A DNA stretch of 60,704 nt, filler included, from Dimargaris cristalligena (GCA_003614675.1; 3 parts of 3 records of this genome joined end to end with filler, not necessarily neighbours in it), one strand, 5' to 3'; numbered from the whole stretch's first letter, positions 6,351 through 38,829 are shown. Notes: generated by a model from the letters alone, not told the origin. Numbers and translations are program-made.

Positions 6351-6794
6351 TCTCTCTCCTACTCCGGGGAGCAATAGTTTTCCCCTAATAATAACCACAT
6401 ATGTAAATAGTGCGTAAGGGTGGCGGTAAAACTGGGTCTATTCACTTTATATACTTTAAATAAATGTTCGGGTTGCTTATTGTAAAACATACCGTCCCTA
6501 TATTCTAAGCATTGGGTCCCTCTACTGGGTTGGACCATCTGGTTTATGCCTCTGTATAGCAGACCATAAATATTAAACTAGAGGTGTGTAAATGAATAAG
6601 AAGCAAAAGTTTGGTGGATTTTTCGTGGTGCTCCATGGAAGCTTGACTATAACAACTCATACTCTACAGCATTTCCCAGACTAACGACGACGCGTCCATT
6701 AGATCATACTTGGTTGATCCCTGTTACTACTACTCTCTCCTACCTAGCCAGGTACAGGCCTCCAATAGATAGGGGAAATGACCACCACTGATGA

Positions 6795-6936
6795 TATGGG
6801 TGAAGTTCAGCTTGGCTGTATAAGGGTTTAACTGATATGTGTATGGGAAAATCGGTGGGATGCTTATTTTTAACCAGTAGTATTTGCCTCATCAAATGGA
6901 TCTTTCGTTATACAGCCTCGCTGAACTACTCCCATA
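6795..6936 (-). mobile_element. 142-bp MITE (TA-flanked, Tc1/mariner-like), copy 1
   Basis: Imperfect ~27-bp TIRs TATGGG(A/T)GAA(G/A)TTCA..GCTGTATAA. The interior matches the other three copies. Confidence 0.85.
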
Positions 6937-7042
6937 TGTTAATAGCCTTTGCCTATCCCTTGCAAAAGGAAAAAAGGGGAGGTGCCACAAGAGTGGAACA
7001 CGAATTACCCAGCCGACCTATTGGGCCGGAGCACGACTGCAT

Positions 7043-7085
7043 CTTGGTGAAATGTGGACCAGTTGTATAAGGTTTTACATAGTAT
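7043..7085 (-). mobile_element. Partial MITE end (one TIR)
   Basis: TTGGTGAAATGTGGACCAGTTGTATAAGGTTTTACAT matches the MITE terminal region. Confidence 0.6.
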
Positions 7086-9108
7086 GTGCTTGAGGGGTAG
7101 GCGGGAGATTTGTCTTTAACCAGCGATATTAGCCTCTTCCAACGGTCTTTTCCCTTTACACAGCCTGGTCGGAATTCTCCCCATCTTTAAATAAGCCGAG
7201 AGGTGTATTCCGGGAAGTCGCGGCCCAGGTGAGATTATGGTTTTTCAGCGAGAGGTCTCGCCTATGGGGAGTTTATTTACCCGACACCTATTCGGCCACA
7301 CCACCAGTTCGGTGGTGTAGACATTACCCTCAACATAGCTGCTTCCTGGAGGACCGTTCCACACTTGTTATTCGAATAATTGCCAGGCTCATCAAAAATA
7401 TGCCGAAGAAAGGGTCCGGTTTATAAGCGGGATGGTCCCTGGCCAGGGCCTCCAATCCCCAATTCGCTGTAGCCTTCTACCGTTACACACAAGTATTACT
7501 TGCCCACCTCTTCAAGCCCAAATACTATACATATGCGACTTGGTGTTCCAAAAAAAATCATCAATGTTATTTTGGGGAGAGGGGGATACCTTCTCTCATT
7601 CTTGCGACTGACTCACTCATATATTCCAGGGAGGGAAGCAAATGTCCCCATCCTAACTGCCCCCGGTAGTGGTGACTTTAAGTATTACTCACACTCTTCA
7701 TTTCCGCTTTCGGATATATTGGTATACCAAAGACCGTCTATTCCCCGAATTCCCCAGGAGGGAATACAGTCCTTACCCTTGAAACGTAGGGCCAATAGTT
7801 ATTACACCCCCCCCCCCATATATCTTCACTATACCTACCATTTTGCATCGGCGCCTCGACTCCATGGACCATTGTTTCCGATATGCGTCACTCGATATGG
7901 GCAGAGCCCTGGTTTGAGCTGAACGGGGTTCCCTCAGCCCCCTGTCGATTGGAGAATTGGGCTTATTGATACTAACAGTCTGTTTTGGCGCTTCATCGCA
8001 CAGTAGGTTTATGTACTGTGCCTCATGGTAACTACATGGACAGAGTCCACCAATTGTATTAGTGATCAAATTACCCAGGTGGAACGGCCCATCCGACCAA
8101 TAACAGTTAGTGTAGCAGCCAGCTGGACGTGGGGATTCATCCCCTTCGGCTGTTATCAAAACCAAGTGCTTCCACCTCCCCCTAGTTCCGGGAAGTTCCT
8201 CCTTTTAGTATTCCTAATCGATAAACCGCTCATACACATTTCTCATTCGACCCCTACTGACTCGTGATAAAGGGATACCGCGGTATTTACTTGAAGGACG
8301 AATAGGGATGACTACTCTTCCTCCTCTGAGGACCCATGTCTCATCGTTCGCAGGAGAGGTCTTAACGGACTTGGGTTTAAAACCACCATTGTACTAATTG
8401 GGGTTGAAGTGTGCCAATTTTGTGTGATAATTATAATATAATCCTCCTCTTTGTATTCCTTCCTACTAACCAACCCAATTTGGCTTCATTTATTTTAAAA
8501 CAAAATATATTATCTGCAGTGATCATTACATAAGGACATGTCGGCTTTTTAGCGATTGTAGGCAGCGGACTTGTCCATTGCACTTTATTGGTGACACCGA
8601 TATATAACAAATCACCAACGGTATCTATCAACGATAATCAATAATTAGGTGTTTATTAAATGAGCGAACGGCACTATTCCGGAGTAAAGACTTTACATCG
8701 GCTCTTCAATATTAGGCAGTGAGAATGGCTATTAGCAAGTAGTAAACGTAATCTACACCCAAGTCTGGTCACGGATATCCAAATAACGATGCCTAGTTTT
8801 TCAGGCACACACCAGGGAACACCGTAAACTTAACTACTGAAACTTCATCAAACCTCCAAATTAACGTATAAAAGCACCAGTATATTTAATCATTGAACGG
8901 TTTACTCGGAGAGTCGCTACCAAGCCTTATTCATTGAAAAATACCGGGTATATGAAAGCCGGGGTAGGGATATAGACATGGCTATAATCAATACTGACCA
9001 CCCATCTCTCAGCTATACTAAGGACATGGGCATTAATATACCTAGTAAATTTCGAGCCTAAGTCTTCTAATCTAATCAAGCCAGTCTTAAATCCAGCATC
9101 GACATCAC

Positions 9109-15329: not shown

Positions 15330-17569
15330 TTAAGAGTGTGGTGTGGGCCACTGGGAAGAGGGTTCGTTCGCAGAGCGGTAGGCCGTGCTAAGGTGCCCCA
15401 GTCCCAATTTGGTCAGGACCGCCTGCTCCTGCTGGTAATAATCCTCGTCGGGGTTAGCAGGAAACACAGCGTGCAGTAGCGACTCACCGACCATAATCGA
15501 GGAGCCCTGCATCGATGCTTCCATCAAGAGAATTACCACTACGGCATCCTGGACAGTCACCCGAGTCCGCGCCATTAGGCGGGCGTGGGCCTGCGAGAGG
15601 CGGATCAGGCTTTCCAGTAGCCGGACCGTGGTCCGGGCCGCACTGCGCGAGTCGGCCTGGCGCTGCAACTGGTAGTACTGGGATAGGATTTGCTGGCTGT
15701 GCTGGGTCTGCTGGGGCTGGTAGGTCCCTTTGATAAACTGCAGATACCCCTGTAATTTTTCATAGTTCCAACGATCGCCAGATTGGTGGCCCTCCTGTAA
15801 TGTTTGGCCTTCGGTTTCTAAGATAAATGAGGAAATTGCCCTATAGGACCCGTTGGTAAGCGAGTGCAAATATACAAAAAAAAAACAAGAGTCGGTGAAA
15901 TCGGTATTAGCCTGGATGTAGAATACGGGGAAGGAACCTGCATCCAAACCAGGTATGGAGTAGGTGTAAGCGGGGTAGGGGCATCCTGTGGTGATATGAG
16001 AATCCCATGCACTTACCTATCCCATTCTTCGTTGGGGGTATCCAGAAGAACTAATATCAGGTCGAAGCGACTCAGCAGCGGAGAGGCCAGAGCCAGGTTG
16101 ACTGTTAGGCTCTGGTCGGGGTCGTATTTGCCCTTGGGGTTCGTTGCGGCCAGCACGGTACAGCGGGAATTCAGTTTGCACACGATGCCGGCCTTGGCAA
16201 TGGAGATAGTTTGCTGTTCCATGGCCTCCAGGATCGCCGTCTTGTCGTGTTCGCGGATACTTCCAAACTCGTCGATGCAGCACAAGCCGCGGTCGGCCAA
16301 CACCAGTGCTCCGGCCTCAAGCTGCCATTCGCCGCCATCCTTGACCGCCGTGACCGTAAGGCCGGCTGAGCTGGACCCGATCCCAGTAGTGAGTACCGAG
16401 CGGGGCACCAGTTTGGCCGCATACTTGAGGAACTGGGACTTGCCGGTGCCGGGATCGCCGACCAGCAGCAGATGGGTTTCACCTCGCACCCGGGTGCCAC
16501 TCGGGTCGACTCGTTCTACGCCCCCGATGAGAACCAGTAATACCGCCAGTTTGATGATGTAGAGTCCGCACACGGAGTCGCAGAAACTAGCCAGAATCAA
16601 GTTGCGCCCCACCATGGGCCGGCCCCGATACTGGTCCCAAAAGGCGGCAAAATCCGACTTCATTTCCTCGGTCACGGAGACACCGGCGCTTTGGTTATTG
16701 TGCAGAATCAGGTTATTGGCTAAAATAGTCAGTTCAATGTCGCAGCGGTCGTTTTCGTAGGCGGCCCGCCAGCGCCGAATCAAGTAGCCGACCACGGTGA
16801 CATCGTCCCCCGACTTGGCCCGGTCTACCAGGTCGTTCTCCAGAATCACCACGATGGAGTGGGGAATCGACCCCACCGCCAATTTGTTCACCTGCTCCTG
16901 GATTTTAAGTTCCTGGTAGTCAGTGCACGTATCCCCCACGAACCGACCATCTAAGAGCGCGGTGCTGATGGTCGAGTCACTCACCGGCATAAATTTATTG
17001 CCCCGGCAGGGCCCGTCCTGTCCGGAAGCCGGTGCTTCGGCCTGGCATCGCACCGGTTTAGGTACGAGATTATATTGTTCCATATCGGCCCGCACGCCAA
17101 AGATGCCTTTACAGGTGGTGCATGAGTAGAATCGCTGGGTTTCGACTACTTTGACCATGCCGGTTCGGATCACCGTGCCCGTCAAGCAGAGCAGGGGGCC
17201 CATGTCGTCGGAGGAGGGGATCGCGGTCCGGAAGAGCTCGGGGCAGTGAGGCAAGCTAGCGATACGTGCATGGGCCTGTTTCTTGACGGTCATGTCGGCG
17301 TGGAGCGGATGGTTATGCTTCACTCTAACTTGGGCCACCTGGAGAGCCTGGTCCAAAACGGGGAGGAGTTCGGCGGGATAGCGAAAGAGGCAGTGGCCCA
17401 GCTCGGGGCTGGTGTCCAATAGTTCGAGCAGGCTAAAGGGGAACGCATACTGTTGGTTCTCGTCCGGTTCAAATAGCAGAGTCTGGAGGGGATCGAAATA
17501 CCGGTCGACCAGTTCGTCTGTCAGGAGGAGTCGGTATTTGTCGAGATCTTCGTCGGCAATGTACTTCAT
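15330..17569 (-). CDS. MCM9: DNA helicase MCM9
   Basis: Exons 17569-16017 and 15840-15330 (~687 aa). MCM Zn finger (CTTC..C..C), Walker [10 protein letters not shown], Walker B CCIDEF and arginine finger SRFD. The segment [55 protein letters not shown] and [10 protein letters not shown] are MCM9-type. Confidence 0.92.
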
Positions 17570-18147
17570 GGAGGTGATAGAGTATCCGGGTGAACCAATG
17601 CGCTGGAAGTTGAGTGGTAGTGCTGCGGATTGTCTGTAGTGAGGTGTTTGGGCTACACCATTCGGTGGTCTCTAGAGAGAGGATCGGGCAATGGGGGGAG
17701 TAGGGGTGTGCTCGAAAGGCTAGGGGACCAGCAGGCAATTCGCACTAAACTATGTAGAACTGCTGACATATACTTGGGTTCGAATTGAACTGAGGGTTTG
17801 GTAGGGCACAGTGGTCCACGACAAAGGCAGTGGTCGCTATGCCCTAGTAATATCAATTAGACCGCTGTTTCCCAAGTGTTGGAATAGAATCGGCTTGGTG
17901 GACGAATTCCGGCCTTGGGGCTCCAAAAGAGTTTTTTTATTGCAGGCAGGAGTTGGACGCCTTTCGATGCAAGACTTGGTTCCGTTTTCCTTCCACCACT
18001 GTGTCAATTCGACATCGCTTTCTTTATGAAGCTTCAGTGCGCCATTTCCGATCTTACCCATCTTAGTAGGATTCGTATTGCTGGATTTACTATTTCTCGG
18101 ACCATTTGATTGATTACCCTCACTTTACACCATTCCACAGGTCAACC

Positions 18148-18704: not shown

Positions 18705-19282
18705 CTATTCACCATTGACACTCCAATATAGTGGTTCTGTATTGCTGCATAGTGCAGGTTAAAGGGAGGCTTATTTTTATCAATTTCTTTATTGGTTTTA
18801 TCAGAACTAGATTGTTACTGAAAATATCCCTGTCTATCCTAAAATAAGCATTGTTAATGAGCTCATAAGGTGCTGAAAGAGAGCAGCTGGGACCAGATAA
18901 ATAATTGTTGATGGCTTATTTGGTGCCTGTTTACCAAAGTTATCTTAGTCATACAACCCAGGTATTTAAACCTGCCTATTTTACTCCCTAGTTTGGAGAG
19001 ATACTAACCCTGAATGAACTAGTCTATATCACCCATCCTTTAACTGTATCCATTTCATATAAAAAACACCTTTATAAAAAACTCTATATAATATTCTATT
19101 TCATTAATTAATTCATTTATTAAGGCTGTTGAAGAGTGAATTAAAGCAACCACAGTCTTCAAGCTTAAATATATTTATTTTATGAAAAACAGAACAATTT
19201 ATTAAAATACTATAATTATTTTTAAAAAGTAACACCATATTCCATTCTAAGCACCCTTTTATTGGAAACCCCAAAGCATCCC

Positions 19283-20221: not shown

Positions 20222-20321
20222 NNNNNNNNNNNNNNNNNNNNNNNNNNNNNNNNNNNNNNNNNNNNTTAATTAATTAANNNNNNNNNNNNNNNNNNNNNNN
20301 NNNNNNNNNNNNNNNNNNNNN
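20222..20321. other. Assembly gap with TTAATTAATTAA spacer
   Basis: 100-nt N run containing the artificial six-frame-stop linker; the same construct is at 40493-40592. Confidence 0.97.
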
Positions 20322-20879: not shown

Positions 20880-22140
20880 AGTTTTTTGGGCACTCTATAA
20901 GCCATATTCGCTTAGCATCCTAGAATCTAGTTTGAATGTCGGATAGTCATCGCGCCCCTTTAAAACCCATCCAAAGGGTTTAAAAAAAGAATAAAGCTAC
21001 CAATGTAGTATGGCCACTACTACGCCTATTACTATTCAAACCTTAACCTCCTTTTTAATCTATCAGCATAACCCTATCAACAAGCCAACTCAGTATTTTT
21101 CTTCACAGCTATCAAAGGACTTTTTCTGCATTTCTTGCATTATCAATGCAGCCACAATGTCATTATAAACATTATGGATAAGTTCAAACTAAGAGATACA
21201 TTCCACTGAACGTAAAGTATTGCTGTTTAGTTATATATTTATTTGATTAATTAATAACCGAAGTTCCAGATATAAAAAGAAGAATTCCCGCCATTCAAAA
21301 AACATACAGGTTCAAACATGATTTTTTTTTTAATATACGAACCATTTAACCTGCACATTGGCAGGCACCGCCCAGGTTGAAATTAACCGGCGGCTGGTTT
21401 TCGTGGCCGACCCCTGTCTTGATCAGTGAGGGTGGCAAAGGGGTCGGCAGTGGGGTAGTCCTCTGAAAAATTCAGGGATATGCCCCTGGAGCCACCCTGT
21501 TGGGGATGGCTATTGTGATTATTTACCTGCGTTGTCGCAGGGAGCGGCCTCCATACTTTGATGAAGGCAGCCCAGATAGAGGTAAAAACGATCTTTGATC
21601 TGGCCATTTGTAAGGAAATATGTATATAAAGAAATATGTGGATAAAGCAAGTGAAGGGGCAAGTGGTAATGGTGTAAGTGCTGTGACTTTCGGGCTATCA
21701 ACTAGAAGTGGGAAAAGGAGACGGGGTTTCTTTGTCTTTTTATACTGAAGCCAAATGGCATTGTGTAATAATTTGGAGAGGTATAGAATGGTCAACTGGG
21801 TGTTCAAAGTAGGTTTAGACCATAGGGCCATCCAGTGTATTCACCGAGGGAACAATGACACAATTGGCGACTTGGGTTCATAATTGGGCAAGACATGGTT
21901 AGCATGCCTACTCATTCCCATTGACAGCCATCCAGATGACTATAGGGAAGTCCGCCACCAAGTATTCAGTATTGGGTTAGTTTCTGGGTTTTGGACTAAC
22001 GTAGCCAATCAATGCTATGGCCAAGGATACCTCCTATACTACCTGGTAACGGGACAGGACCACGAGAATGGCCAGTGACATTGAATGAAGGCTTCTACAA
22101 AGTGCGGTATTTTTTATTACTGTACAGAAAATCACCTTGG
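20880..22140 (+). mobile_element. Unclassified dispersed element (family X), diverged copy A; boundaries approximate
   Basis: Shares TATAAAAAG, the CATTTAACCTGCACATTGGCAGG module and colinear flanking similarity with copies at ~28.3-29.9 kb and ~38.8-40.5 kb. Confidence 0.6.
21343..21541 (+). ncRNA. Candidate structured RNA module, copy A
   Basis: Six predicted hairpins conserved in order in three copies, with compensatory changes. TATAAAAAG at 21271. Transcription is not demonstrated. Confidence 0.5.
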
Positions 22141-25100
22141 GAAATTTAATATCAATTCACAATAGGATGATCAGACTAACAATAATAGTTAGGCCCTACC
22201 ACGAAGCCCGCTACATTGCCTATTGAAAGGGATTTGGCCCTGTCAGTTATTACAATGCAATACCGGCGTAACTGAGTATACTCTACAATACTAGCCCTAC
22301 CACCTACCAGATGGACACCAATTAGACACGACGTAGTCGATACCAACCACAATGCCCTTAATATTAAGGCAAGGCCCGGTTATTTCAGGATTTTCTTAAT
22401 CTATTGACGAACTGGGAATGACTTATAGCCACCGCAGTACGGTTGTGGTTTAACATTTAATATACACCGCTGGTTTTTTATTTTGGTGACAGTAGTAAGT
22501 TAGGGAAGAGGATGGGACGCCCGAATTGTAAATATTGAATGATCCAGTGGCTGTTTTGGACACCATCTTGGACTCGATACTACAATGGGGTCTCCAATGA
22601 GCCATCACACATTCAAACCTCGGACTATTGTTGTGATTTCCACTACCGTTGCTAAGCCTTATCCCTACATTAATGGTCTCATTTAACTGTACTAGTGGGT
22701 CCCCATCTGTAATGGGCCATTGCGTTGTCGGCATCATAGACAAAAGAGTACCTACAAGATTAATGCTAGAGTTTTATTTAGACAAGTAAGCGGTAGTAGA
22801 TTCCATTAGTAAAGTGCCAGTCACACGATTTAGAAGGTACTATGCCTGACAATACAACAGTGCCCAAATTCCCAGGATGACCCAATTGGCATCTTGAATC
22901 TGAAGGGGCATCCATTGTAATGACTACGGATACCACTTGCATACTGGTTAGCTGTTCAGGTGACTAGTCTATAACTCTTTGGTTGACACTATAGTATCCT
23001 TTAAATGGCATATGGCCGATTACGAATAGTGTTCATATATATAGAGGATCCTTTTAGACCGCCTGGCTAGGCCCAATACTATTTGACCTTGTCTAGTGTA
23101 AAAATATTGAACACCTTGCCTGATATATCAATGAGTTATGCCGGATTTAGTCTTATTTGTAATTTTGCCGACAATGGCTTCCTGACATTAGATATATTGT
23201 CATATCACTACTCTCACCCCTCCTACCCCTAAATTCATCTTAAATCTATTGCCAGACCAGTCTTTAATCCATCACCATTTGGGCCATGCTGCAAGTGACT
23301 AGAATTGTTTTATCATTCAGTTTTCTTCAAATGGGCTAAATAATGGTTTGGTTTAGTGTCAACCTCCAGTTCAAGGGCATTTTAGTTGCTGTCATTTTTT
23401 CTCACAGTTCACATATTATTATGTTCCCCCTTTTAGTTTTTGATATTGGTTATATAAAGCTGTTTATTGCTTTTCTGATTGAAATAATGTGCTTTAATCC
23501 TCAATATTATAACTCGCCGTGTTTAGCTAATCATCCATACATACCCTCAATGGCCATTGGCTTTGACTAGATTTCAACGTGTTCATTTACGAGGATTGGT
23601 ATAATATAGTTTGACACCTGTACCGCTCACCCGTAGCCCTCTCCCCAGCAAAAACTACCCATCAGTTTCCTCTGGTTCCCATATACTAACAAATGTCTTT
23701 CAACTAATAATGAGGCACCAGATGGCTATAAGCCTGCCTAATTCACTGCCAATGAAGGTTGTATCCATTTATTCACACAATGACAAGTGCACCTATATTA
23801 TTCCAGTTAAGCCGCTACATTTATAGTCAGATGTTCTGACAATGTTCCCTATCCTGGACTGTTCGTATTAACCACTATTGAAATTCTATTTTTCAATAGA
23901 CTACCATTTTGCAAAGTCTGTAACTTATGTGTTTTATAGAATACTTCGGGATGAGGTGATTGTTCAGCAACCTAACCACCAATATTTATATTTGGGTTAT
24001 GTCCCATAGGCACTTTATCATAGAGCAGCCTTATCACTTACATTGCCAAGAACACTGTATAGTATCTTCTACTTAATTTAATTATTAGGAAGTGGCTTGG
24101 CAAGTTGGTGTAGTGTGCTACGCATGACAACCGCATTTTTATAATCAGACACATGGGCTGATCAGTCTGGCCTCGGGCTACAGCAGTTAGTTGCTTAGGG
24201 CTGGCTTGCCAGATACTCCGTTACTGGAAGTGGCCCTGAAGGGCCTTGTTCTCTGACTATCTGCCAAGTCTCTGGGGATTCCAATCAGTACCCCGTCTTA
24301 ACTAGTGTAGTTGGTTACCTGACCCCCCCCCATCTGGCTATTCTTTTAGGCAAACCTTACCCCAATATCCGAGGACTAGATACAGATTATCCCATTCAGT
24401 CCCATCGGGAACTAGTGCTTTTATAAATATCTTAATCCGCCCAAATCCCCACCAATGTCCCGAATTTAGGTACGCCATTCCCTATATTTGAAATTCCTCC
24501 TTCACTACCAACATTCTCTGGTTGACGGACATCCCCAGTCTAGTAGGTTTCCAAATTCAGTGGACTCGCATGTGGCACTAAAGTAGTCTGCCATTGCGGC
24601 ATCCCTGGTCCTCGAGTACCCCTGGTCACATCTAGTCTAGCGTTTGACACGGGTTAACGATGGCCATCCCTGACGATAAGCTACATTGAATATGGATTCT
24701 AAACAACAAAGCTGTACTCATTTAGATGGAATGGGTGGAAACCAAGATGATGGCAATTTGAGCCAGTCTTTCTGTGTTCTGTGAAACCATGCTGCCAATT
24801 GCCCACGTTAACAAGTATAGTTTATCCACTACAATGAATCATAAATTATAATACTTTAGTCAACTGCACCCATTAAGTAATACTGCCATTACGTGCATGC
24901 CCATATAAAATCCAAAACCAAAATGCTGCCAATGTACTGTAAGCCATTGTTTAGTTATTTAGACGAGTCAGTGAGAGAAATGTAGTTGGCTGGCCAATTA
25001 TGGCGGACATTATAGGGAAAATCGAGGGCCCGGCTGAAAAAAAAACCAAAGTACGAGTAGATTTGGTTATAAAATTTGATTGGTGAGAGAGAGTAGGCGA

Positions 25101-25202: not shown

Positions 25203-27062
25203 TCAGCTTTTCTTGACTTTGATGGTCGAATCACCGTTAAAAATCCAGATACCACAAAATACTAAAAAGCTGACCATCAAGGAGCCAGCGCTGATGTAGT
25301 ACGGGTAGGCCGATACCAAATAGCGATCGTATTCATTGTGTTTGAAGGGTAGGATGGGGACCACATCAGTATGCTTCACGTGCGACAGTCCGCGGCGGAG
25401 GAAGTCGACCTTGAAGGTGAAAACACCGTAAACATCGGGCAGATCAATGATCTGACTGTAGACCGCCGCAGTACCAGTGCGCGACTCGGCCTCGAGAGTC
25501 TGGCGAACGTAGGGGTCCAACATGACGGCCTCGAATTGGAGTTGGTTCACCTGGGCTGGGTGCCACTGGTCAGCATAGTACTCACTGAGGTTAATCGAGT
25601 ACTTGATGCGGTCGCTAACGCGGAATGATCCGGGATTGGCGCTGGGGTTCGATTCCTTCTTCTCATCGCTTTCATTCGGTCCCACCACATGGTAGCTGAC
25701 GGAATTAACCCGCACGACGCTCTTTTCCTGGAAGGTCCATTCAGTCAAATCCCGCACAAACTGATCGTTGCCATTGGGTTTGGGGGAGGTAAGGACCGTA
25801 GACGAGGGAACCGGGGTAGCGAAAAAGGCATCGCTGAAGAGGCTAGTGGAGCCTACCACCATGACTCGGGCATTATTACGGGCCTGAAAGGCACTGACTA
25901 GGTGCATTTTGGAGCCAGATAAAAGGCTATCCTTGGAAGTGACGACCTGGCCTTCGGAGGTATCAAAGGAATAGGTGGTCGGATACCCAGTCAGCACAGA
26001 CCACAGCATAGTCGGTTGGGAGTTGGTCATGTGGCGGTGTCCCACGCCTTGGTAGAGAATCGGACCACCTTGGCGCACTTGATCGCCTACAATGTAGGTA
26101 GAATTGGTGTACTGATCGGTCAGAATGCGGGTGTGGTTCTCCGGATCACGTACTCCGGCTTCGGTCTCCGGTGCGGGCAGATAGTGGAAATGATCAACTG
26201 CTACGTTTCCCCTCAAGTCAAAGTCAATCCCAAGCTGCTTGGCAAAATCCCGCTGGGCCCCGCCAAAATCTGATCCCGCAGCCATGACAATATTGCCACC
26301 ATCATCGATAAACTCGACCAGGGATTTGGCCGTAATTCCGTTACCGAGTCCTGGTAGGGGAAAGTCGGCATATTAGGTCGGGATTTCATAGTAATAGGGT
26401 ATACATGAAGAAAGGGTTAATTGCGAATTTAAAGGGAAGGTGTGTGATATATGTAACAGGTGCTCGACTCAACCATAGTGCCTCTCAATAATAAACTTAC
26501 GTTTGGCTTTGGGGGCAAGAAGGACAAGGTGGTCGAATTGACGCTCGCCATAAACAAAAAGATTGAGTTTGTTCGAAGTCGCCGTTTGAAAGGTGACTGA
26601 GAAGCCGCGCGCTACAGAAGTCCAACAGGAATACCGGAATAGTCAACCCGAGGGAGTCCGCAAGGAGATCGGATCATTAAATACATGAATATATAGGGAG
26701 AGGGGAAGGTCGACATTGAATAGACGTCGCTTATTGTATGGTCAGAAGCCGGCCCAAAGACTATATACGTCAGTAATATCAAACCACTTCTTAAAAGGTT
26801 ATACTGGTAAATAGGTGCTTGGAATGAAGCACATCATCCAGGCGGACTTTAGAAGGTGTTGATAGAGACCAGGCGAACGACGGCAATGATAGATGTTCTT
26901 ACATTTTAGGGATTCGACGAATCGGCCATAATCTTCGGGCTTGGCCTCAGTAGCCTTGGGTAGCACGAGTAATGCACGATCGCCAGTTAGGGACTTGGCT
27001 TGGCCTTCGGGTATAGATGTATAGGCCAGCGTAGCGGCCAGTAAAAGATGGAAGAACCGCAT
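25203..27062 (-). CDS. WBP1: Oligosaccharyltransferase subunit WBP1/OST48 (DDOST)
   Basis: Exons 27062-26903, 26611-26501 and 26350-25203 (~472 aa). Signal peptide, QARNNARV, MLDPYVR, LPDVYGVFTFKVD, YPYY followed by a C-terminal TM helix and a KxKxx ER-retrieval tail (KVKKS). Confidence 0.96.
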
Positions 27063-28254
27063 GGCAAGGATTAGAAAACTTAATGGAACGATGTATATAA
27101 GGGTGTATATATAAATAGACAAGTCGCGCTAAAGATGAAGAAACAGGGCCGATACTGATGGGAGTAAGGAGGCCATGTCCATCTTGGCAAGACCCGCGCA
27201 ACACTACATTAAGGATATTTATGTTAGAAGCTCATTTCTCTCGCCCCACTGATTATATATACCTTAGGGTTATATCGTTTCATACTCGGGGGTCAATAAT
27301 ATTGATCTCATCTTTTACCTAACTTAATAAAACCAATGTACGGCATCCAGCGATACTACTTGCGGTTCCTTCTCTGGTTTCACACCCATTTAAGTTGCAC
27401 TAGGAAGCACTTCCAGAATTAGGACACTAACCGAACCTACCTGTACTTTAGGCACACCTGTTCTGTCTGTTCTGGTGGCATCCTAATTACCCAATCACCA
27501 TTACAATGTACACTCCATTACCTATGAAGCTGACAAGGTGGTTCCACGGATAAAATGTGGGGACACCTGTCCAAGTCATGAAATCATGACACTATCACCA
27601 AACCATTTATCATTGAAACTTGACATTCCCCTTGTTGCTGTCGTACTTAATACCACAAGGTAATATAGCCTGATAACCTTATCAGGGCCGGCTGGAGCAG
27701 TGACAGTCCGATGGTAAAACTAGCTAACTATAGGAAAACACGCACTTGGTGGTGACGATTCTTATCTGATCTTCAGACAGGGACAACTAGGCAACTGGGG
27801 ATCACTCAGGGATCCTTCTAGTACGCGGCGGAAAGGCACAATGAATGGACTTGGGCCAAATGACGACGTGGATAGAACAAAACCGGGGATCGAAATAAAA
27901 CTTAATGGTGTAAAAACCGCCTGTTTTTATTTAAGAGAATGCCCAACGGGTATTTATGTAAAATGTAACATAGCGACTTACTGGTGCTATGATGATACTA
28001 GATAATAGAATAATGAAGGCCGCCAATGTTGGCGGCTTTGGAGGTGCAAAGGCTGGGGATACGCCCCAGACTTCTATAACTAGAAAATCCTTAGACTACG
28101 AATACTACTATGAATATTGAATAATGGAAAGGTGGCCTATAAATGGGTGGGAAAAGATGAAGACTGACCTTCGGTGATGTTCTTCATCTTTTCTAAGCTA
28201 GAAATAGCTTGGCCGGGATATACTATTAGAGATTAAGCAAGCCTGGCTACAACA

Positions 28255-29890
28255 CCTTAGGCAATCACGACAGGTTTTAATGTAGGAAATTGATGGTTAC
28301 ACGCGAAGGATTTATCACAGGAATATTTCAAATATTATCTGCATATTCTAAACCACCTGTTTTCAAACACTATTGGACAAGGTCACTTTCATCTTCGCGT
28401 TTGGCGACATTGTGCTTGTAATTAGCTATACTATAGCTAAGCAGTGAGCACCTAATCGGGAGTTCAACTAATCTAGTAGGATATGGTCAGATCTATTGGT
28501 AATAAATTAATATCTGACAGGGTTTGATCTTCACAAATTCATTATATAGCAGATTCCACAGCAGGGTCTAACTGTCTTCACTATATCGACCACTATAGTG
28601 CGAAAATAGACAAATAGCCATGAGGTGTCATTCTGTGGTCACCATGAATATCAAGTTTTGTAGAAGCTACCATTGAAGAATTTTGGTACAACCACTATCC
28701 CACGACCAGGTGCCGTAAGTAGTGCCTTTGGCCATTGCATTAAGCCATTGTGGCTAGCCTTTTCCAAGTGACTAGCCTGACTCCAGGCACTTCATAATAA
28801 GATGCCATGGATCCAGTTGAATAGTTAATCTCGCTAATCCGTGGACATGGTCACTATTCCTTGTCAAGCTTCAACAATAATTTAGCAATTGGCCCATAGT
28901 TCCCCCGATGGATATATATAATGACCATGCAATTGTAAGTTCACTTAAGAGGGGCAGTCGGCTATCCTATAGCGCACCTGCTTCATACGGGTGTTATTTC
29001 GATTTCTGATAAATAGGTGGATGAACGGCCTCCCACTAAATATTATATCGGACAGAAACAAATTTCTTATGCACTGGTCCTCACACTTATAGTACTCTTT
29101 AGTGAAACATCAAAGCTTTTGATTATTCCTTCTTGGGCAGTTCCCACTTTCTCACCTCCTTCTTTTTCGTATAGCCACTCCAAGGCCGGTATTTTCCAAC
29201 TCGGGCACCTATAGCAAGGTGTACAGACCGCTCCTTGCAGAAATGCAAGCAAAACATATAATTATTCGCCCTCAACAAGGTACAAACGGCAATCCCTCCC
29301 TCGTCTTAGGGAGGGACTATACAACGGCCAACCCCTCTGCCAAGCTCTCCGAGGCAGACAAGGGTCGGCCCAATGTGCCAGCCACCCCATAATCCAAGCC
29401 CGGGTGATGCCTGCCAATGTGCAGGTTAAATGCGATACCAATAAATTTTACATTTTTCAGATTAGTTTTATTAATATGGTTGAATTCGATAAGAAGTATC
29501 CTTTTTATATTGGTATTTTGTTGGTTGGGTTGATAATTTTTGAAGTATATAATTGTATCAAAACCAGTGAAGGATAAAGACTAGTAACAAAGCAGTTGGT
29601 AAAAAGACATCTATATGCATGATAATGCCACAGTGACTGTTTAAATAATGCTGAGGCGGTGGATGTGTTTTGTTGGGTTAGATGCAAAACATTGATTATT
29701 CTAGTTAAAATCACTATACTGAAATCTATAATAATAGGGTTCATTGTATATTTCTGTGAGCGAGTGGCAACATATTCATTTGAGCTTGGGACTGGGCATA
29801 CTCATTATATGTGTTTTTCGGGTATGTATAGACGGTTCCAAACGTAGTTTGGGGATTTAATGGATTATTATATTTTACCCATAAATTGCA
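28255..29890 (-). mobile_element. Family X element, copy B; boundaries approximate
   Basis: Clearly alignable to rc 38830-40492 (e.g. 28620-28920 vs 39800-40100). Stop-riddled in all frames. Confidence 0.75.
29233..29432 (-). ncRNA. Candidate structured RNA module, copy B
   Basis: Same hairpin series. TATAAAAAG on the minus strand at 29509-29501. Confidence 0.5.
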
Positions 29891-30592
29891 CTGTTAACTT
29901 ATGTACAATACCATATATAGTATGATATCCCGCGTGGTTGCCGTACTGATAGACGCGAGGCCCCTGGCCTATCGGTGGGGCTTTAAGTCGTGGTGATTTA
30001 ATGCACAGCGACAGCTTTCATGTTGCTTCCCATCTGGGAGTGATTCAAGCGACTGTTTCTCCTGGACACTACATACACCTTACGATCACTAATATCGGAA
30101 ATCCGCCTCAGGAAGGGCAGTATGCTACCCAAACTTATTTACCAATTCGTTGTATACATTGTTTACATTCGCCCCCTGTGTACCTCGTGTTTAGACAAAT
30201 TGTTTGTATGTTGGAAAATCCCCCTCGGCTTCTATTAATTCCTGGTTGATGACGTCGCCGTTCTAGTAGAATCCCGTCCATTGGAACACGAGGAAATGTG
30301 ATATTTCTGTTTCAACTGACCGTGGTACAATATCAACAAAATACCACTAATTACTGTCCAAACCTCAAGTTACCGCCATTAGTACCCCCGAATTGCGTAA
30401 GTCTTCAGAGCGGGATTATGGAAACCGGTTGCAACCCAGCTCCTTTCGACTTTCCTCTTAGTCCAAAAGCCATACTCTACTGCCGACTACCCTTCCCTTT
30501 AAATATTAAAACACAGCACCTAGAACTGGTGGCCCATGGCTACCCGGGATTCTATTTTTCATAATTACTGGATTCGAAATATTATATAACAA

Positions 30593-30734
30593 TATGGGAG
30601 AAGTTCATTCAGGCTGTATAACGAAAAGTCCATTGGATGAGGCCAATATTACTGGTTAAAATCTATTCTCAGATATATTCACCCTTACATGTATTATGTA
30701 AAACCTTATACAGCTGGTTTGAATTTCACCCATA
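30593..30734 (+). mobile_element. 142-bp MITE, copy 2
   Basis: TATGGGAGAAGTTCATTCAGGCTGTATAA...TTATACAGCTGGTTTGAATTTCACCCATA. Confidence 0.88.
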
Positions 30735-30917
30735 TCCATCCTCTCCCTAGTCAGTATCACTGATTAGCCGAGGGAATTGTTCGGATAACTCTATTTATTA
30801 CAAGTAGCAGTGATCGTACAGTATGTGATTGAAGCTAAACAAGAACACAAGGGGGAGAGGTGGATGACACGCATAAGAATCATTCCCTTCCCTCTCTCTT
30901 TCTACAATGTCCATCCA

Positions 30918-33900
30918 TTAGGTTTGTTTCGTTCGTTTTCGTTTAACCGCCGAGAGGCTCATTGTTTTACCTGGCCGGGAAGTAGTAGTCCGGGTCAAGC
31001 GGGGTGTTTCACTAACGGATGGGGATAAGGATGGGGTCGAGGACGTATCGCCGGGCCGGGGCGACGGGCTCATTTTACGCTTGGTTGACTGCGGGGTCGT
31101 TAGCTGGGCCATGTCGCTGACTTTAGGGTTGAGCACCTTCGACATTAAAGCAAGGTAGGTGGTTTGGACCAGGGGCAGGTCAATCATGGTTTGCCCAATG
31201 GCCTTCAGTTCACCCACCGCAGGATCCATACGCCCCTTGTTTTTGCCTTTACTGCTTGGGCGGTTACATATCCAAGGGGGTAAACCCGTGGGGACGCCGT
31301 GTTGGTCGTGATCGACGGTTAGGAAATTGTGGATAAATTCGGTCGTGACGCATAGGCATTGCTGTTCTACTACCAAAATGTCCAACATATCGCGGCGGAG
31401 CTGGTTAACCACGTCCTTGTCCACAATAAGGTGGGTAAATACCTGGGTAGCCAGGGTGCGGAGTTTCTCGCGTTGCTCGCTAATTTTACAGGCAACGACC
31501 TGCGCCCCGCCCGCCTGGATTATGCGCGTGTAGCAGTCGAGTTTACGGTCACTGGCGCATAGTAAAACCCGCCAAGCCACGAAGGCGCCCCGCACGGAGT
31601 GGGTGGTCCGACTTGATTTGGTCAAATGTTCCCTCCACTGTTGTGCGGCAAAGGCCAAATTCGCCTCATCCGGGGGGATATTATGGTTCTGTGACCATTC
31701 ATAGGGGGTTTCGTCTAGAAACTTACCCTGTTTGGCACTCTCTTCGAGATAGCTAGGTTGCAGAACCCTAAGTTAAGTTATCGTAAATCGGATATTATAG
31801 AATAGCGGAGAATTAGTACTAATTTATCATTCGAGTTATTCAGGAAACTCCAAATGGGGCCCTATCATTTTATGCAGAAAATTCACAAACAGATATACAT
31901 ATGAATTTCAACTTACCATAATCCCATCGAAATTGCCGCAATCAGTTTCTCGCTACGATTGGCGTACCCGGCAATCAGGTGGGTACAGGTAGGGTCGAAC
32001 CCGTCCTTATCAACCACCCGACCGCCCAGTTTTTCTAAGAGCGCGACGATTTTCTTGCGCTTGACGGGCGGAATACTGGATAGTTGAAAGATACGGACTT
32101 TAGCGGGCGGAGCAGTCCTATTCCTGCTTTGTTTCGAAGGCGACGAGCTCCTAGAATTAACCGACAGGGATGCGTCGCGTAAGGAAATGGGAGGGGGCTC
32201 CGAGCCTAGCAAGTCCAAATTGGAATCGTTCTCGACCGACTTGGAATTAGCGGCGCGGGTCGACAAGATGTCTGATGTAGTAGTCGTTGCTGGCTTTGCA
32301 GCCTCCCCGCCGTCCGATAAATGGGTGGCGGATGATGGTAATATTCGGGCGTCCAAGTCAGATGAGGTAAGCGCAGTTTCAAAGAGGGACAGGTCGCTAT
32401 CGGCTCGGGGTAAGGGGGCCACAGGTGGTACACCCAAGGTTTTGCCCGACCGTGGAACAGTTGGGACAGTGAGGGCTGCGGCAGAGGTTGGGGACAACCC
32501 TGACTCCAGGAACGGATTCTCATAATGGGTATCAATCCCAACTTGGCTGCCAGTTCCCTGGTGATTCCCGGGGGTCTGCGTGCTGCAGCCTGCCGAAGTA
32601 CCCGATGGCATTGGTGACGCAGCAGCCTCGGAGGCCGTGCTACTATTGCTTGCATTGCTATTGGACCTATGGTGCGAAGTATCCCTTAGGCGATTAAGTA
32701 GTAGGCTTCGTTCCCGCTGGGCCTCGGGGTCTTGGTATTGGACCGTTAATTGTTCTTGTGTCATTAGGAATAGAGCCGGGCTCATTCCGCCCGTTTCCGC
32801 ACCGGGGGCAGGTGGGACTGGTGTCGACTGGGCCAGGCTATTCCCTGAATCCGGGCGCGCCGATGGCTGTGGGGCGGTAGTCGTAGGTGTGGTGGCCACC
32901 TCAGTCCATACAGGCGACTTGGCTTCAACTACAGTAGCGGGTGCCATAGTAGTAGTAGTAGTGGTGGTGGAGGTGGTGGTAGCCGTAACTTTCAGCTCCT
33001 CTGGGCCTCGGTAGCGGCGCTTTAGGGATATTTTTGGGTCTCGCAGGGTCGGCATTTTCCCCAACAGAGTCTCGATTTCGGAGGCGTAGTCCTTGACTGG
33101 TACCGCAGGGACGGGGTGAGTAGGCGGGGGAGGGGGCAGACTGGCCTCAGGGGTTGCTGGGGAGGCCGATTGAACAATAATGCTAGGGGTCTGAGGCATT
33201 GTTGGTGGGTGACTTACAGCCGCTGGAGGCGGCGTTGGTGTGGGTGGTACGGCAGCCGTAACGATTGGAGTGGAGGGTCTGGCATTCGGCTCATCAGCAG
33301 CGTTAGGGAGGGCAGGTTGGAGATTTAATAATAAACAGGGGTTGAATGTATGGGGAAAGCCCGATACCGACAACCGGCGGCCTTCTTCGAGACAGCGGTA
33401 AAGCCACCAGGGAGAGACAATCAGTTTATGCATACCCCGGGCCTGCTTGAACTCTTTGAAAGTCTCCTGCACCCGATTGCCCTGGTGTATATAATGGGTG
33501 CACGAGTCGTTCAGGGACCATACTACATGGGCTCCCATGCGGCGGGCCAAGTCGGTTAGTTCGGATCGCCGGTGATTGATCCGAGTGCTTATATAGAGTA
33601 CAGCGCCTCGCAATATTGATTCGGGTGAAGGGGGGGTGTTGGAATCTGTAGCCGAAAACGCGCTCCAAGCCGAATCTCCTGAATGCTGATAATGAGGTGA
33701 ATGCAATGAGGCGGACAATAATGGCTGGCCCGTGACACGGGCCATAATTTCACGAGTGGGGGTTTTCAGGTCCAGTAGGGCATCGGTGATGTCGAATTGA
33801 AGGCCAGAGGGGGAATCGAGGCTGAAGCGGGCGTCCCGGGTATGGCCACCAAGAACAGGGTGCATGGGAGTCCCTAGGGGAGTATGAGAGGCCGACAGGG

Positions 33901-36424
33901 CCAGTGAAATAGCTGGGGTCGGAGTTAAGGGCTCGGCTACGCTCACGGCTGGAGTGGTACTTGAGCTCGGGTCGGCTGTTCGCCCAGCTGTGGAAGGAGT
34001 GAAGGTTTCGTAGAAATTCAAATGTACTGGTGTAACGGGGGCCGGTTGCCCGGCGGGTGTTAACAAATGGCTAATCGGGGGTGAAGCTGGTTTGCTTGGG
34101 TTTATCTCAGGATGTAGTTCGACGGAAGGCTCGTCCGGCGGTGACTGTTCAACGGGACGGGCCAGTTGGTACACCCAGTCTGCCCCATGGACGGGGATGC
34201 CCCATTCCAGGGCCTTGGTATATTTGGCTCCCGAGGCGTGCAGAGCCACTAGGTGGGTGTGCCGCCGGGAGAATTTCACATTGCACGCGACTCCGAGGGT
34301 ATTAAGGAGCTTGAGAAGGTGCCCCCGTTCGAGACCTTCAAACCCACTAATGCTGATCAAACAAGATGAGAGGGCAGACAACGGCCGCGGAACTTCAAGG
34401 GGTCGGTAGTGGATCGCACTGTATTCATCATATACAATATGATCTTCTAAGCATTTTTCCAGCCAGCACTCGGTTACAATGTGCAGAGTTGAGCGGCCAT
34501 CGGCTAGGACAGGGGTATGCCGGGTCCGAGTTAGGAGGGCCTTGAAACGGTGCGGCTGGGGGACAGCATCGGCCGAGGAACCCCCAAGAGGGGTAATGAT
34601 GTAGACGACTTTAGATGGTGATGATTCACGGGTTCCTGAAGGGAAAGGCATACTTCGCAATTGATCGAGGACCGCGGCTGACTGATCCGATAACAACAGG
34701 TCCAAATCACTGTTGGTGAGGGCTGATTCCCAGATGCGGCCCCCGTGTTGGGTAATGACTCGGTGTAGTACGGCTAGCTGCTGTGAACTGAAATACAGGG
34801 TTATAAAAAGCACATGGGCCAAAAGAGCTGGGGTCTCGTTATTCGCCGACTGGATAGCCTTCGGACTCTGCTCTCTCAATGGATCTGGCAAAAGGGCTGG
34901 TAAAGGGACTGAGCCGGTACATGGTGTGGCCATAGTGCGACTAAGTAATGGGTGGACTTCACCGGCTATTTGGGGCCCAACTCGGCGAATGTAGGGCGAG
35001 TCAGGAGGACCATTCTTAGTAAATTCCGAGGTGAAGTCGTGACACGATGACTTGGCCCGCCGAATGGTATTGGGGGGCTTAGATTCCAACACCCCGGGCA
35101 CGGGGTTACTTGGCGACAGGTAGCTAGGTGTATTTATATTTTCGGCTGAGGCCGTCATTAGATTGGTTTTGCCAGAGAGGGTTGAGATGGAGGCCAGTCG
35201 CCGGGAAAGTGGGGTAGGGGTGTCGGGATTCGCACCAGTTTCCCGCCGCGCCAACAAATCGACTTCCATTGCAAATTCATTGGGGGGCTCGACGGTTCGA
35301 GGAAAGGAAATCAGATAAGGAGTAATGGGCAATTGCGTGCGCTGATGGTAACAGTCCCGCAGCCAGCGCTGATTTACGATATGGAAGCCAGAGCTGAGGT
35401 GGGAGGTGAGCAAGATGCGGTCCTTGGCGGAAAGCTGGGAGCTAAAGGTGACGAAATGGGTAATGGAGGCCGCTGGGAACCGATTGAGTCTAACCCCACC
35501 TCCTTCGTCGATTATTTTTTTCAGGTGCAGCAACTTTGTGGGGCTGAATCCGTAGCCCAGATAAATGAAGCAACCGGCCAAATAGTGGGGGGCACTACCC
35601 CCCTCTAATTTAATGGGGATATGTAAGTGCGTCCCAGTGACGGGCTGAGGCTCGGGCGTAGGAGTGAAAGTGGGAGTAGGTGACCGGGCGGTAACTGCGG
35701 TGGAATTATCCTCAGCCGGACCCTTTGGGGGGTCCGTCTCGCCCATTCGACCATCGGAGGCGGCCCGGCATAACGGCCGGCGAGGGGGGGAGTTCGGACC
35801 CTCGGGGGCAGTCGCCGCGCGTTGGAGTTTCGAGCCTGTGGAAGAGTGGGCCACTGGTACGGGATATAGGGATTCGTCCGCACAGGCCCCCATCTTCACG
35901 CTATCGTGGACCCAGTCCATATTGACGATATGAGTGCCGCCCCACCCCTGTGCCAACCGGTACTTTTCCCCCCTAGCGGCTTGGGCCACCAAATGGGTGC
36001 AGCGGGGAGTGGCAGACCGGTCGTACAGGCCGCCATGGTGGGTGATAAGGCCCTGAATTTCCGACCGAAGCGTCGTGCTGGGGAACCCGGTGAGATGCAC
36101 GCGGCAGCCAGCGAAGGGGGGTAAAAGGAACCGCTTAAGGGTCACTTCAGGATCCAAATGCGCGGAAGAAGGAGTGACCTCCTCCGCTAGGGCGTGACGG
36201 TGGGTGTACACCCATTCGGGTCGCACAATCGGCTTGGAGACCCGGACGGCTAGTTTGTACTTGTCTGAGCCGGTTTTTTCCGCGATAAGCACGTTGACGT
36301 CTTCGGTGTAATCGCCCGTATACCGACCACCACACTCTTGGATGGCAGCAGCCAGCTCTTGCCGCTGAGTAGGGCCAAGTCCCGTACTGCATATTAAATA
36401 GCGATTCAATGGACCAGGAGCCAT
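30918..36424 (-). CDS. TOPBP1: TopBP1/Dpb11/Rad4(Cut5)-family multi-BRCT checkpoint and replication scaffold
   Basis: Exons 36424-31917 and 31767-30918 (~1785 aa). Eight recognisable BRCT repeats, including a C-terminal pair (RSEKLIAAISMGLWVLQPSYLEES..YEW; GAFVAWRVLL) matching TopBP1 BRCT7/8. Confidence 0.88.
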
Positions 36425-38509
36425 GGGGCATGTGGGGTCGAGCCTCGGGCTACGATGTATTGAATTTCTGAAGAACCACTAGGAGAATTTACTAGGGCTG
36501 GTCAATAAAAAAAAGACTGGTGTACAATAGCTTGGCTCGCTGGTGACTGGCACTAATGTAGAAGAAAGAGGGACTACTTGGCAGGCTAATGTACCAAAAA
36601 AATAAATAGAAAAACAATGGTAGCACAGTGATGTGGCGGAGTTTGATAAGTGAAAAGCCACTAGAATTTATATATATAGGGGCCTAGGAATAACATTACA
36701 AAGGAAGTTTAGTACAACTGAAGGATATATATTAGTAAGGGAGCAAGGCAAATGAGCCCAGAAAAAAAGAGAACAATAATACACTGTTGGAGGTCAGAAA
36801 GAGTCGAGTGGACTAATGGTGATCTATACTAATACTAATTCCACGCCACCAACGGTGGGTTTCCGCAGCAGGCCTCGTCCCCTAGCCCATTTAAAGTAAC
36901 TCTGATAATAATTTTCGACGCACAAGCAATCAGAGTTCACCGTAAGGAGCCAATTAGGAGCACCGGTAAATATATCATACGGGGAACTTGATAGATATAA
37001 TTCCAAATGAATTCACTCAGGAATTATGTCTGCATAATTGGGTGGCATATTTATGTGGCTAACGGTTATCTATAGTGACATTCCCATCGTAACCCAGCGG
37101 TTCATGATATACAAAGGAAAGGACACGATCCCCCTGGCCAATTTAGTCAAAGACCAAGGCCGAGCTGGTGGGCAAAGCCGATATATGCTGTACACTATTG
37201 TTAATAAAAAGAATTGCAGTTATAAGGTCTATCACACAGTTTGGAAAAATCGTGAAATAATTACCTGATAGACTGAATGAATAGAATATAGTGGGCCATA
37301 CTTCTTCCGAGAGGCATTTATATAGACAGACCGACTAGGCAATGTGGGGCCACAATTTCTGAATAGACAGTCAGAATCACTCTTTCAAGAAACTACAGTC
37401 ATACATGGTATTAATTTTTAGAAGCTAAGGCATAGTCCAACGAACTGTGGAAACTTACTGATTTGGGGCTGCTTCATTCTAGGCAGTATCCAATACCTTA
37501 ACCAATGAGAATACTAAAGCAGCAGTGGAATCTTGGCCATTGAAATTTTAATTTGGAACCAGCATCAATATCAAGTGAATTCGCCTCTGAACAGTAGACC
37601 TTTATAGTAAAACATTGAGTATTCACTCATGCATTATTCCTCAAAAAGTTATATATATAAGAGGTAGCACCCAGTAATTAAAATTCAATATAATATTAAG
37701 AAAATAGTAGACCATGTTGCCAAAACCCCATTTCAGAGCCAAGGGGCTGGGGGGAAGGAGGGGGACTTTTATTTTTGTAATAATGGGGTACTGGCTTTTA
37801 GGGAGATGGGATGCCTGTTATCTTCTGGTATATACTATGAAGGTGTAGCTGGGGCATTGCTATGTACCAGGTCTTATGTCAAGTAGGAGAAGGATCGTTC
37901 AGTGCCAAAATGGTCAAATGTGAAAGGTGTCCATCATTTACCTGAGAAGCCATTTACAGTTACACTTATTTTTCATGGATAGCCATAATACAAAATTATG
38001 TATAGAGTACAGAAAAGTGGCATGGCAAAGTAAAGATGTTGAAGTACAAGGAATTGTTATTGGAAATTCATTTCCCCCGTCCCACTGATTCCATCTCTGT
38101 GATTGGCTCGTCCTATACTCGGGACTATATTCTAGCCATTACTATATCATTCTATACCTGGGACTTCGTCCTAATTATTATTACTGCTATTATCCAATTC
38201 AATAAAACCAACCGCGGGCATCTAGCCTTGCCCCTTGCGGTTTTCTCTCTCTTCTTTAAATCTTTATAGTTGCAACTGAAGGTACTTGCATTTACCATTA
38301 TATTTATATTTCTAACAATTGTTACCAAGTAATTCACAATAGGCAAAATCAGGTAAATCACATTGGTGAAAAAACCACCAGTTGGAGCAATTATAGACAA
38401 TACATTTGCCATTCCATTTTGTATACATTAGCTGTAGAAGTATTGTGAAAAATATGTGTCAGTGAGGTTCCCAAAATCAATTCCAACAAAGAAGCCAATG
38501 GCTGCAGGA

Positions 38510-38651
38510 TATGGGAGAGGTTTAACCGAGCTGTATAACAAAAAATCCATTAGATGAAGCAAATATTACTGATTAAAAATAAATCTCTCATGTATTATCA
38601 CACACACTTGTCATTTAAAACCTTATACAGCTAGGCCTGATTTCACCCATA
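38510..38651 (+). mobile_element. 142-bp MITE, copy 3
   Basis: Same TIRs, length and interior; more diverged. Confidence 0.85.
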
Positions 38652-38829
38652 TGTTATTCACAATAAATTTATCTAAGGGCATCTTTAAAAATATATACCA
38701 TAGCCAAATGACTTGATATGTAAAAATAGGTGCCTTCCATCAGTATTGTGTAGATTTATGGCAGTTGGTAAGGCAAAGGGCAGATCTGTATTATATAAGG
38801 AACAAATAAGTATAAAAGGGGAGTATATT

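Follow-up and report, generated by a model that had tools for sequence, protein, structure and literature searches.

A structured element of about 200 nt occurs in three copies (A, B and C) in a stretch of 60,704 nt of the fungus Dimargaris cristalligena (GCA_003614675.1), referred to below as the window. The element is the best-conserved part of an old, duplicated, non-coding unit of about 1.35-1.4 kb; it combines a pronounced folding potential with compensatory changes and a strand bias, lies downstream of a TATA box and belongs to a family whose size in the genome we estimate at about eight copies. The reading that we favour, and whose probability we put at about even, is that of a lineage-specific family of independently transcribed RNA polymerase II (Pol II) genes for small structured RNAs with a layout resembling that of small nuclear RNAs (snRNAs). 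It builds on the decay of the flanks, on the retention of the hairpins while the 3' half of the element drifts in sequence, on the retained TATA box and on the invariant 5' end. If these are real RNA genes, they represent an undescribed, promoter-equipped family of structured RNAs in the barely studied mycoparasitic Dimargaritales, for which non-coding RNA annotation is, to our knowledge, essentially absent, and the invariant 5' module points to a defined and findable binding target.

The element had been singled out in a sequence-only reading of the window, and the observation as a whole was confirmed: three copies lie where that reading had placed them (Table 1), and their first 23 nt are the same. 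A 21-mer from this invariant start is found three times in the window at up to three mismatches, against 0.00 expected from 100 shuffles. A covariance model built from A, B and C and run over the whole window with the filters off detected no further copy above chance, the next best match scoring 6.6 bits (E 1.1). The first 14 nt of the element are also nearly matched at 18752-18765 on the minus strand (one mismatch) and at 27387-27400 on the plus strand (two mismatches), in both cases with an ACCAAT motif 35-50 nt upstream and a weak covariance-model match (E 8-10); these sites may be decayed copies or chance matches (0.52 expected, two seen besides the three copies).

Every hairpin that had been described (H1, H2, H3, H4 and H6) is present as written, and the order is kept in A, B and C. 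The RNAalifold consensus of the three copies comprises H1-H6 and a weak closing helix; as modelled, the RNA is able to form six hairpins in a fixed order. Compared with 200 dinucleotide shuffles each, the single-sequence folds have z-scores of -3.74 (A), -3.50 (B) and -4.86 (C), and an equally good fold is reached by 0/200, 1/200 and 0/200 shuffles, respectively. Along the units, 200-nt windows of the sense strand score between -3.3 and -4.4 over the element versus -2.3 to +2.2 elsewhere, and the element forms a GC island (0.46-0.53 versus 0.30-0.47 in the rest of the unit). In the consensus, 147 of the 159 cells pair (92.5%), and nine of the 53 pairs have changed on both sides with pairing kept, compared with 4.4 +/- 1.4 in 500 shuffles, only one of which reaches nine; when the partner is slid by one to three columns, only 0-4 both-side-changed pairs are counted. 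These pairing figures lean toward the consensus structure, since that structure was derived from the same three sequences. The double compensatory changes claimed earlier for H6 and H2 were both recovered: the closing pair of H6 reads G-C, A-U and U-A across the three copies, with a further change from C-G to U-A, and one H2 pair, G-C in A, reads A-U in the other two copies. Compensatory changes are also found in the internal hairpins H2, H4 and H5. Copy C, in which three pairs of H3 are broken, may be decaying. The arms of H1 and H6 are nearly the same (CCUGC/GCAGG), and the minimum-energy folds of A and C are 5'-3' panhandles, which indicates that the two ends of the RNA could pair with each other in place of forming two local hairpins; the double changes in H6 favour the local hairpin and would break the panhandle in B.

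The strand on which the hairpins had originally been drawn is the better one by a moderate margin, as judged from the G-U asymmetry, the consensus energies and the position of the TATA boxes on the sense side. The asymmetry is as had been asserted, with 18 G-U cells on the sense strand versus four on the antisense strand, where only 133 of the 159 cells pair because the 18 sense G-U cells become A-C mismatches. The RNAalifold consensus has an energy of -64.5 kcal/mol with a covariation bonus of -1.86 on the sense strand, and an independent antisense fold reaches -58.3 kcal/mol with a penalty of +2.22. The earlier interpretation, that selection has preserved an RNA fold inside a mobile or viral element, stands in its first part: the folding z-scores, the compensatory pairs, the G-U asymmetry and the confinement of the GC island to the element argue that a fold has been kept on one strand. 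Conservation could alternatively act at the DNA level, with the two almost identical palindromes at the ends of the element (CCTGC-loop-GCAGG) and the GC island serving as protein-binding or chromatin elements and the hairpins arising as a by-product. The H1 and H6 palindromes indeed have the same arms and lie about 175 bp apart, and most windows that cover the element also fold better than shuffles on the antisense strand (z -0.9 to -4.75); nevertheless, we consider this explanation very unlikely, as compensatory changes fall in H2, H4 and H5, which are not palindromic sites, the one-strand G-U cells are mismatches on the other strand, and the covariation term is favourable only in the sense orientation.

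On the sense side, the TATA box TATAAAAAG precedes each copy at the spacing reported earlier (Table 1); this 9-mer occurs five times in the window versus 0.88 expected. An ATTCAA motif located 12-20 nt past the TATA box is common to A, B and C, and a block farther upstream, also shared by the three copies, may be a promoter element. About 200 nt downstream of A, the opposite strand carries a fourth TATAAAAAG (21736-21744, minus strand); the sequence aligned with it in B and C is a well-conserved block containing GATATAAT (29026-29059, minus; 39670-39702, plus). This downstream, opposite-strand TATA-like block could be a convergent promoter facing the element.

Table 1. Positions in the window of the structured element, its promoter motifs, the duplicated units and the neighbouring genes.
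Feature	Coordinates	Strand	Remarks
Structured element, copy A	21343-21541	+	covariance model 223 bits; conservation fades by ~21560
Structured element, copy B	29233-29432	-	covariance model 240 bits
Structured element, copy C	39278-39474	+	covariance model 234 bits; three broken pairs in H3
TATA box TATAAAAAG	21271-21279	+	72 nt upstream of A
TATA box TATAAAAAG	29501-29509	-	77 nt upstream of B; CCAA before it
TATA box TATAAAAAG	39199-39207	+	79 nt upstream of C; CCAA before it
Upstream block common to the three copies, in A	21137-21170	+	~100-135 nt before the TATA box
Upstream block common to the three copies, in B	29619-29651	-	same block as in A
Upstream block common to the three copies, in C	39066-39098	+	same block as in A
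Duplicated non-coding unit A	20994-22354	+	versus B, 59% over 641 columns and 57% over 352 columns
Duplicated non-coding unit B	28360-29787	-	69% over 1377 columns versus C
Duplicated non-coding unit C	39020-40370	+	may extend to the end of the piece at 40492
Module 2, unit A	21823-22140	+	conserved non-coding block
Module 2, unit B	28617-28929	-	conserved non-coding block
Module 2, unit C	39794-40105	+	conserved non-coding block
OST48 gene	25203-26372	-	long open reading frame; ordinary nuclear gene
BRCT-repeat protein gene	30918-36478	-	long open reading frame; ordinary nuclear gene
WD40/DUF3337 protein gene	42177-47090	+	long open reading frame; ordinary nuclear gene

In sensitive pairwise alignments, homology of about 1.35-1.4 kb spans all three copies. 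The flanks had been described as far more diverged than the element, which is true of A compared with B and C but not of B compared with C. In 40-column windows, three-way identity peaks at 0.53-0.65 over the element and drops to 0.10-0.25 within about 60 nt past H6; it is the lowest of the unit (0.10-0.33) in the stretch leading to a second conserved block, module 2, and rises to 0.42-0.50 in that block, about 500 nt downstream of the element, where B-C identity (0.75-0.88) is on a par with that of the element. Within the element, B and C are 85-88% identical over the 5' 140 nt and only 53-55% over H5-H6, with the hairpins still present there. This profile bears on the possibility, which we consider quite unlikely, of a longer transcript of about 1.1-1.3 kb (a long non-coding RNA or precursor) that would have the element as its structured 5' domain and would include module 2. 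Such a transcript would fit homology that runs about 1.1 kb past the TATA box in the three units, the excess of module 2 over the background of 0.10-0.30, the lack of a clear terminator after H6 and the weak C/D-box-like matches in the downstream block of C (SNORD27, E 0.97; snoZ266, E 0.56). However, conservation within the unit is weakest between the element and module 2, module 2 has neither excess folding (z -1.6 to +0.4) nor a reading frame, and a TATA-rich stretch just before it in B and C would allow it to be a separate unit; furthermore, the Rfam matches are at chance level, and the C-box-like UGAUGA is missing from A and changed in B.

The unit is non-coding. In tblastx comparison of B with C, all six frames contain stops and score alike, and no part of the unit shows three-base periodicity of mismatches; together with the Pfam results, these data led us to reject the explanation, raised alongside the original observation, that a protein-coding frame accounts for the conservation. 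The antisense strand is open over A, B and C in frames of 103, 120 and 149 codons, respectively. Those antisense to B and C (29215-29577, plus; 39265-39714, minus) are the only open frames of at least 120 codons in the middle piece of the window besides the known genes. That they encode a small protein seems to us hardly credible, even though those over B and C are the only frames of this length in the gene-poor stretches of the piece and even though the element is faced from the antisense side by TATAAAAAG in A and by the conserved TATA-like block of the other two copies. The frame is not kept between the copies: A and B stop at the same TAA in H2, whereas C, with a 2-nt deletion, continues through in another frame. 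The frame of B has no start codon upstream of the element, the mismatches lack periodicity, and the 149-aa frame has no homologue in the protein collection searched and no Pfam family.

Additional copies were sought in contigs of four DNA sequencing runs, which may include the source of the assembly, aligned to 39150-39750 at a likeness of at least 80%. Between 10 and 14 pieces per run were placed on copy C, B among them. A fourth copy, D, closely resembles C (16 differences and 13 gap letters within 39180-39378) and probably continues in a 367-nt contig; a B-like piece shows 11 differences within 39275-39336. In each run, at least three contigs align over 39278-39312 only, with A-like sequence following and preceding, and five to seven contigs per run have C at 39301, where copy C has T. 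Among the differences listed, none falls inside 39278-39300. From these data we estimate that the genome holds about eight copies, all with the same 5' end. In the A-type sister copies, the loose ends of 30 letters mostly read GGTGG, and the difference counts fit CCACC in the 5' arm, compared with CCGCC and GGCGG in H2 of A itself; one consensus has GGAGG, and one single contig has CCACCCAG with CTGGGTGG. These loose ends support the pairing of H2. In copy D, a C-G pair that is disrupted in C is intact again owing to the change at 39379, and a change at 39382 turns G-C into G-U.

As had been supposed from the sequence, the element matches no known RNA family: Rfam 15 at gathering thresholds yields no match on either strand of the 60704 bases, and when matches up to E 10 are admitted, the regions of the three copies show only chance-level ones, none of them to an snRNA family. 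Neither transfer RNA nor transfer-messenger RNA was found in the window. Among the entries listed by literature searches on snRNAs and transposable elements of Dimargaris and on snRNAs of early-diverging fungi, none pointed to such an RNA. The closest resemblance is to the Sm-class snRNAs, and in particular to U1, with which the element shares a putative TATA-type Pol II promoter, a length of about 200 nt, membership in a multi-copy family with variant and possibly decaying copies, and a 5' end, here invariant, that begins single-stranded and is followed by several hairpins, a U-rich tract and a terminal hairpin; it also has ACCUG followed by GCAGG near the 5' end, as at the start of U1. An snRNA-like RNA, one of the options proposed at the outset, is upheld to the extent of this resemblance and nothing beyond it. 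U1 itself was rejected. The 5' end of U1 has the consensus ACUUACCUG, unlike the AUUUAACCUG found in all copies, which would mispair at intron positions +3 and +6 (the MCM9 intron, the one intron checked, begins with a canonical GTAAGT); in addition, even with E values up to 10 allowed, no snRNA model, U1 (RF00003) and U1_yeast (RF00488) included, matches any copy, and the loops do not fit the binding motifs of U1-70K or U1A. A U-rich single-stranded tract does precede H6 in all copies, as had been noted (..GAUUAUUUAC.. in A, ..AUGUUUUGC.. in B and ..GGUUUUUAG.. in C); Sm sites consist of a purine followed by A-U(3-6)-G-purine and lie single-stranded before the 3' hairpin.

Other classes were compared in the same manner. 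Spliced-leader RNAs likewise have small, clustered, multi-copy genes, a conserved 5' stretch at the start of a hairpin (about 22 nt and invariant here) and a U-rich site between hairpins, but the element is about twice their usual length. The spliced-leader assignment was rejected: the invariant ...GGCAGG is followed by a base that gives GC in A, B and most other copies and GT in C only, and there is thus no conserved splice donor; we know of no trans-splicing in fungi. Fungal box C/D and H/ACA small nucleolar RNAs (snoRNAs) are independent Pol II small RNAs, many of which are lineage-specific and missed by Rfam. A box C/D snoRNA or U3 was rejected, as UGAUGA is not conserved, CUGA occurs in A only and no C/D family matches the element. 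An H/ACA RNA was also rejected: the element has six hairpins, the last of 16 nt and without a pocket, and not the arrangement hairpin-hinge-hairpin-ACA, and the sole H/ACA match, SNORA42, has E 7.5 and 13.5 bits compared with a gathering score of 70. The omega RNAs of TnpB and Fanzor are structured RNAs of roughly 100-250 nt, and Fanzor systems occur in fungi; this assignment was rejected because no nuclease gene, and no open reading frame of at least 120 aa except the antisense frames, adjoins any copy, and Pfam matched none of the open reading frames of the gene-poor stretches. Unlike in omega RNAs, it is the 5' end of the element that is constant, and a variable guide segment is not apparent. 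The H1 region has a 9-bp match to the 5' end of 18S ribosomal RNA, which we estimate to be at chance level.

The second part of the earlier interpretation, the location of the fold inside a mobile or viral element, found no support: the element lies in fungal nuclear DNA among ordinary genes, without terminal inverted repeats or long terminal repeats (LTRs) and without a viral match, the 21-mer from its start being absent from a viral contig collection and from contigs of prokaryote genomes. The further options offered then, a guide RNA, a packaging signal or the relic of an endogenous virus, are likewise without positive evidence. The main rival explanation, fairly unlikely in our view, is that the 1.4-kb unit is a non-autonomous or decayed repeat, such as a transposon relic, and that the structured 200 nt are the leader of its transcript, with the 5' stretch and the hairpins serving its own propagation (packaging, dimerisation, priming or enzyme binding) rather than the host. 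It is consistent with a non-coding repeat present in about eight copies with 57-92% identity among them, with homology that extends far beyond the RNA, to 1.35-1.4 kb, and with the location of the units in AT-rich, gene-poor stretches that carry a family of miniature inverted-repeat transposable elements (MITEs). The layout is also suggestive, since in LTR and leader regions of retroelements a TATA box is followed by a structured leader, as it is in this multi-copy non-coding unit with its highly structured RNA start. Against it, alignments of the upstream region with the tail score at shuffle level in the three units (13.5 versus 13.5 +/- 1.4, 11.0 versus 13.4 +/- 1.6 and 10.5 versus 11.6 +/- 1.5), revealing no LTR-like direct repeats; terminal inverted repeats or target duplications consistent across the three units are absent, and homology stops raggedly, at different points in different pairs. 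Domains of reverse transcriptase, integrase or transposase were not found in the 17 open reading frames scanned, nor any Pfam domain in ten open reading frames from the gene-poor stretches, and the presence of three of the about eight copies within 18 kb is more in keeping with local duplication than with dispersal. If the unit does prove to be a repeat and the element its leader, it would offer a clean case of RNA-structure constraint in a non-coding repeat; under either outcome, the importance of the element is moderate and specialist until expression is shown.

Specific types of mobile element were rejected individually. An LTR retrotransposon or solo LTR was discarded for want of an LTR pair, TG...CA ends, target duplications and gag/pol remnants, and TGGCAGG as a primer-binding site for transfer RNA, because the letters that follow it vary between the copies. 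A DNA transposon or MITE was discarded since no inverted repeat is common to the three units, whereas the MITE-like family of the window shows clear ones. This family, of about 150 bp, has five copies (6793-6941, 7038-7181, 30587-30738, 38509-38652 and 57235-57378) that are 70-90% identical, with terminal inverted repeats starting with ATATGGG..(A)GTTCA and ending with ..TGAACT.CTCCCATAT.

On the gene-family reading that we favour, we infer the following course of transcription, RNA ends, particle formation and target recognition. Pol II would start downstream of TATAAAAAG, the simplest site being the CA with which the conserved block begins, and would produce a transcript of about 200-215 nt. 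The 5' end, consisting of the single-stranded AUUUAA and the invariant H1, would be the recognition part that pairs with a target RNA or binds a protein; the central hairpins H2-H5, in which sequence drifts and pairing is kept, would serve as a scaffold; and the U-rich single-stranded tract and terminal H6 would provide for particle assembly and 3'-end protection, as they do in snRNAs. Growth of the family would have come about through local segmental duplications, each copying a unit of about 1.4 kb; the flanks of the units would since have decayed while the RNA, the TATA box and the upstream block were kept. A bolder proposal, which we rate as a long shot, is that early-diverging fungi possess a new class of small nuclear ribonucleoprotein RNA, encoded by this family and resembling U1 or a spliced leader, in which the invariant 5' AUUUAACCUG-plus-hairpin module pairs with a fixed RNA target other than the canonical 5' splice site and the matching hairpins H1 and H6 allow a switch between an open and a closed panhandle form.

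Several findings weigh against a family of small RNA genes. The evidence is that of sequence, all five sequencing runs found being of DNA, and the covariation is drawn from three complete sequences and from fragments of further copies, all from one species. The 5' invariance of the A-type copies is partly circular, because the contigs could be placed only through that stretch; that of A, B, C, D and the B-like piece is not. A comparison of C with D, the closest pair, does not show the element to be clearly better preserved than the promoter region, with about 5-6 changes per 101 nt and 10 per 98 nt plus an insertion, respectively, among the differences listed. The U-rich tract is loosely Sm-like and fits the Sm consensus exactly in none of the three copies. 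A simple 200-nt gene leaves the conserved module 2 and the opposite-strand TATA-like block of B and C unaccounted for, and a multi-copy non-coding unit in AT-rich, gene-poor stretches with MITEs also fits a decayed repeat.

With regard to the genomic setting, the window consists of three pieces of about 20 kb each, joined by two linkers (20222-20321 and 40493-40592), each made up of 44 N, TTAATTAATTAA and another 44 N, and copies A, B and C are all located in the middle piece. Since the linkers split the window, adjacency across them, for example of copy C to the WD40 gene, is not to be assumed. An open reading frame at 16013-17671 on the minus strand encodes MCM9 and is 100% identical to a Dimargaris cristalligena protein, the next matches being to other Dimargaritales at 69-72% (public protein sets exist for Dimargaris xerosporica, Dispira parvispora and Tieghemiomyces parasiticus); this identity and the ordinary nuclear genes in the neighbourhood (Table 1) establish that the DNA of the window is nuclear and comes from this fungus. 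The only long open reading frames in the 20-kb middle piece are the OST48 and BRCT genes, and the three copies are placed in AT-rich intergenic stretches, poor in open reading frames, between ordinary genes. Pairs of inverted repeats, 75-95% identical, are found near the ends of the pieces (118-177/20160-20219, 2834-3065/19902-20132, 20401-20503/60600-60702 and 59217-59529/60280-60592), which suggests that other dispersed repeats are located at the contig ends.

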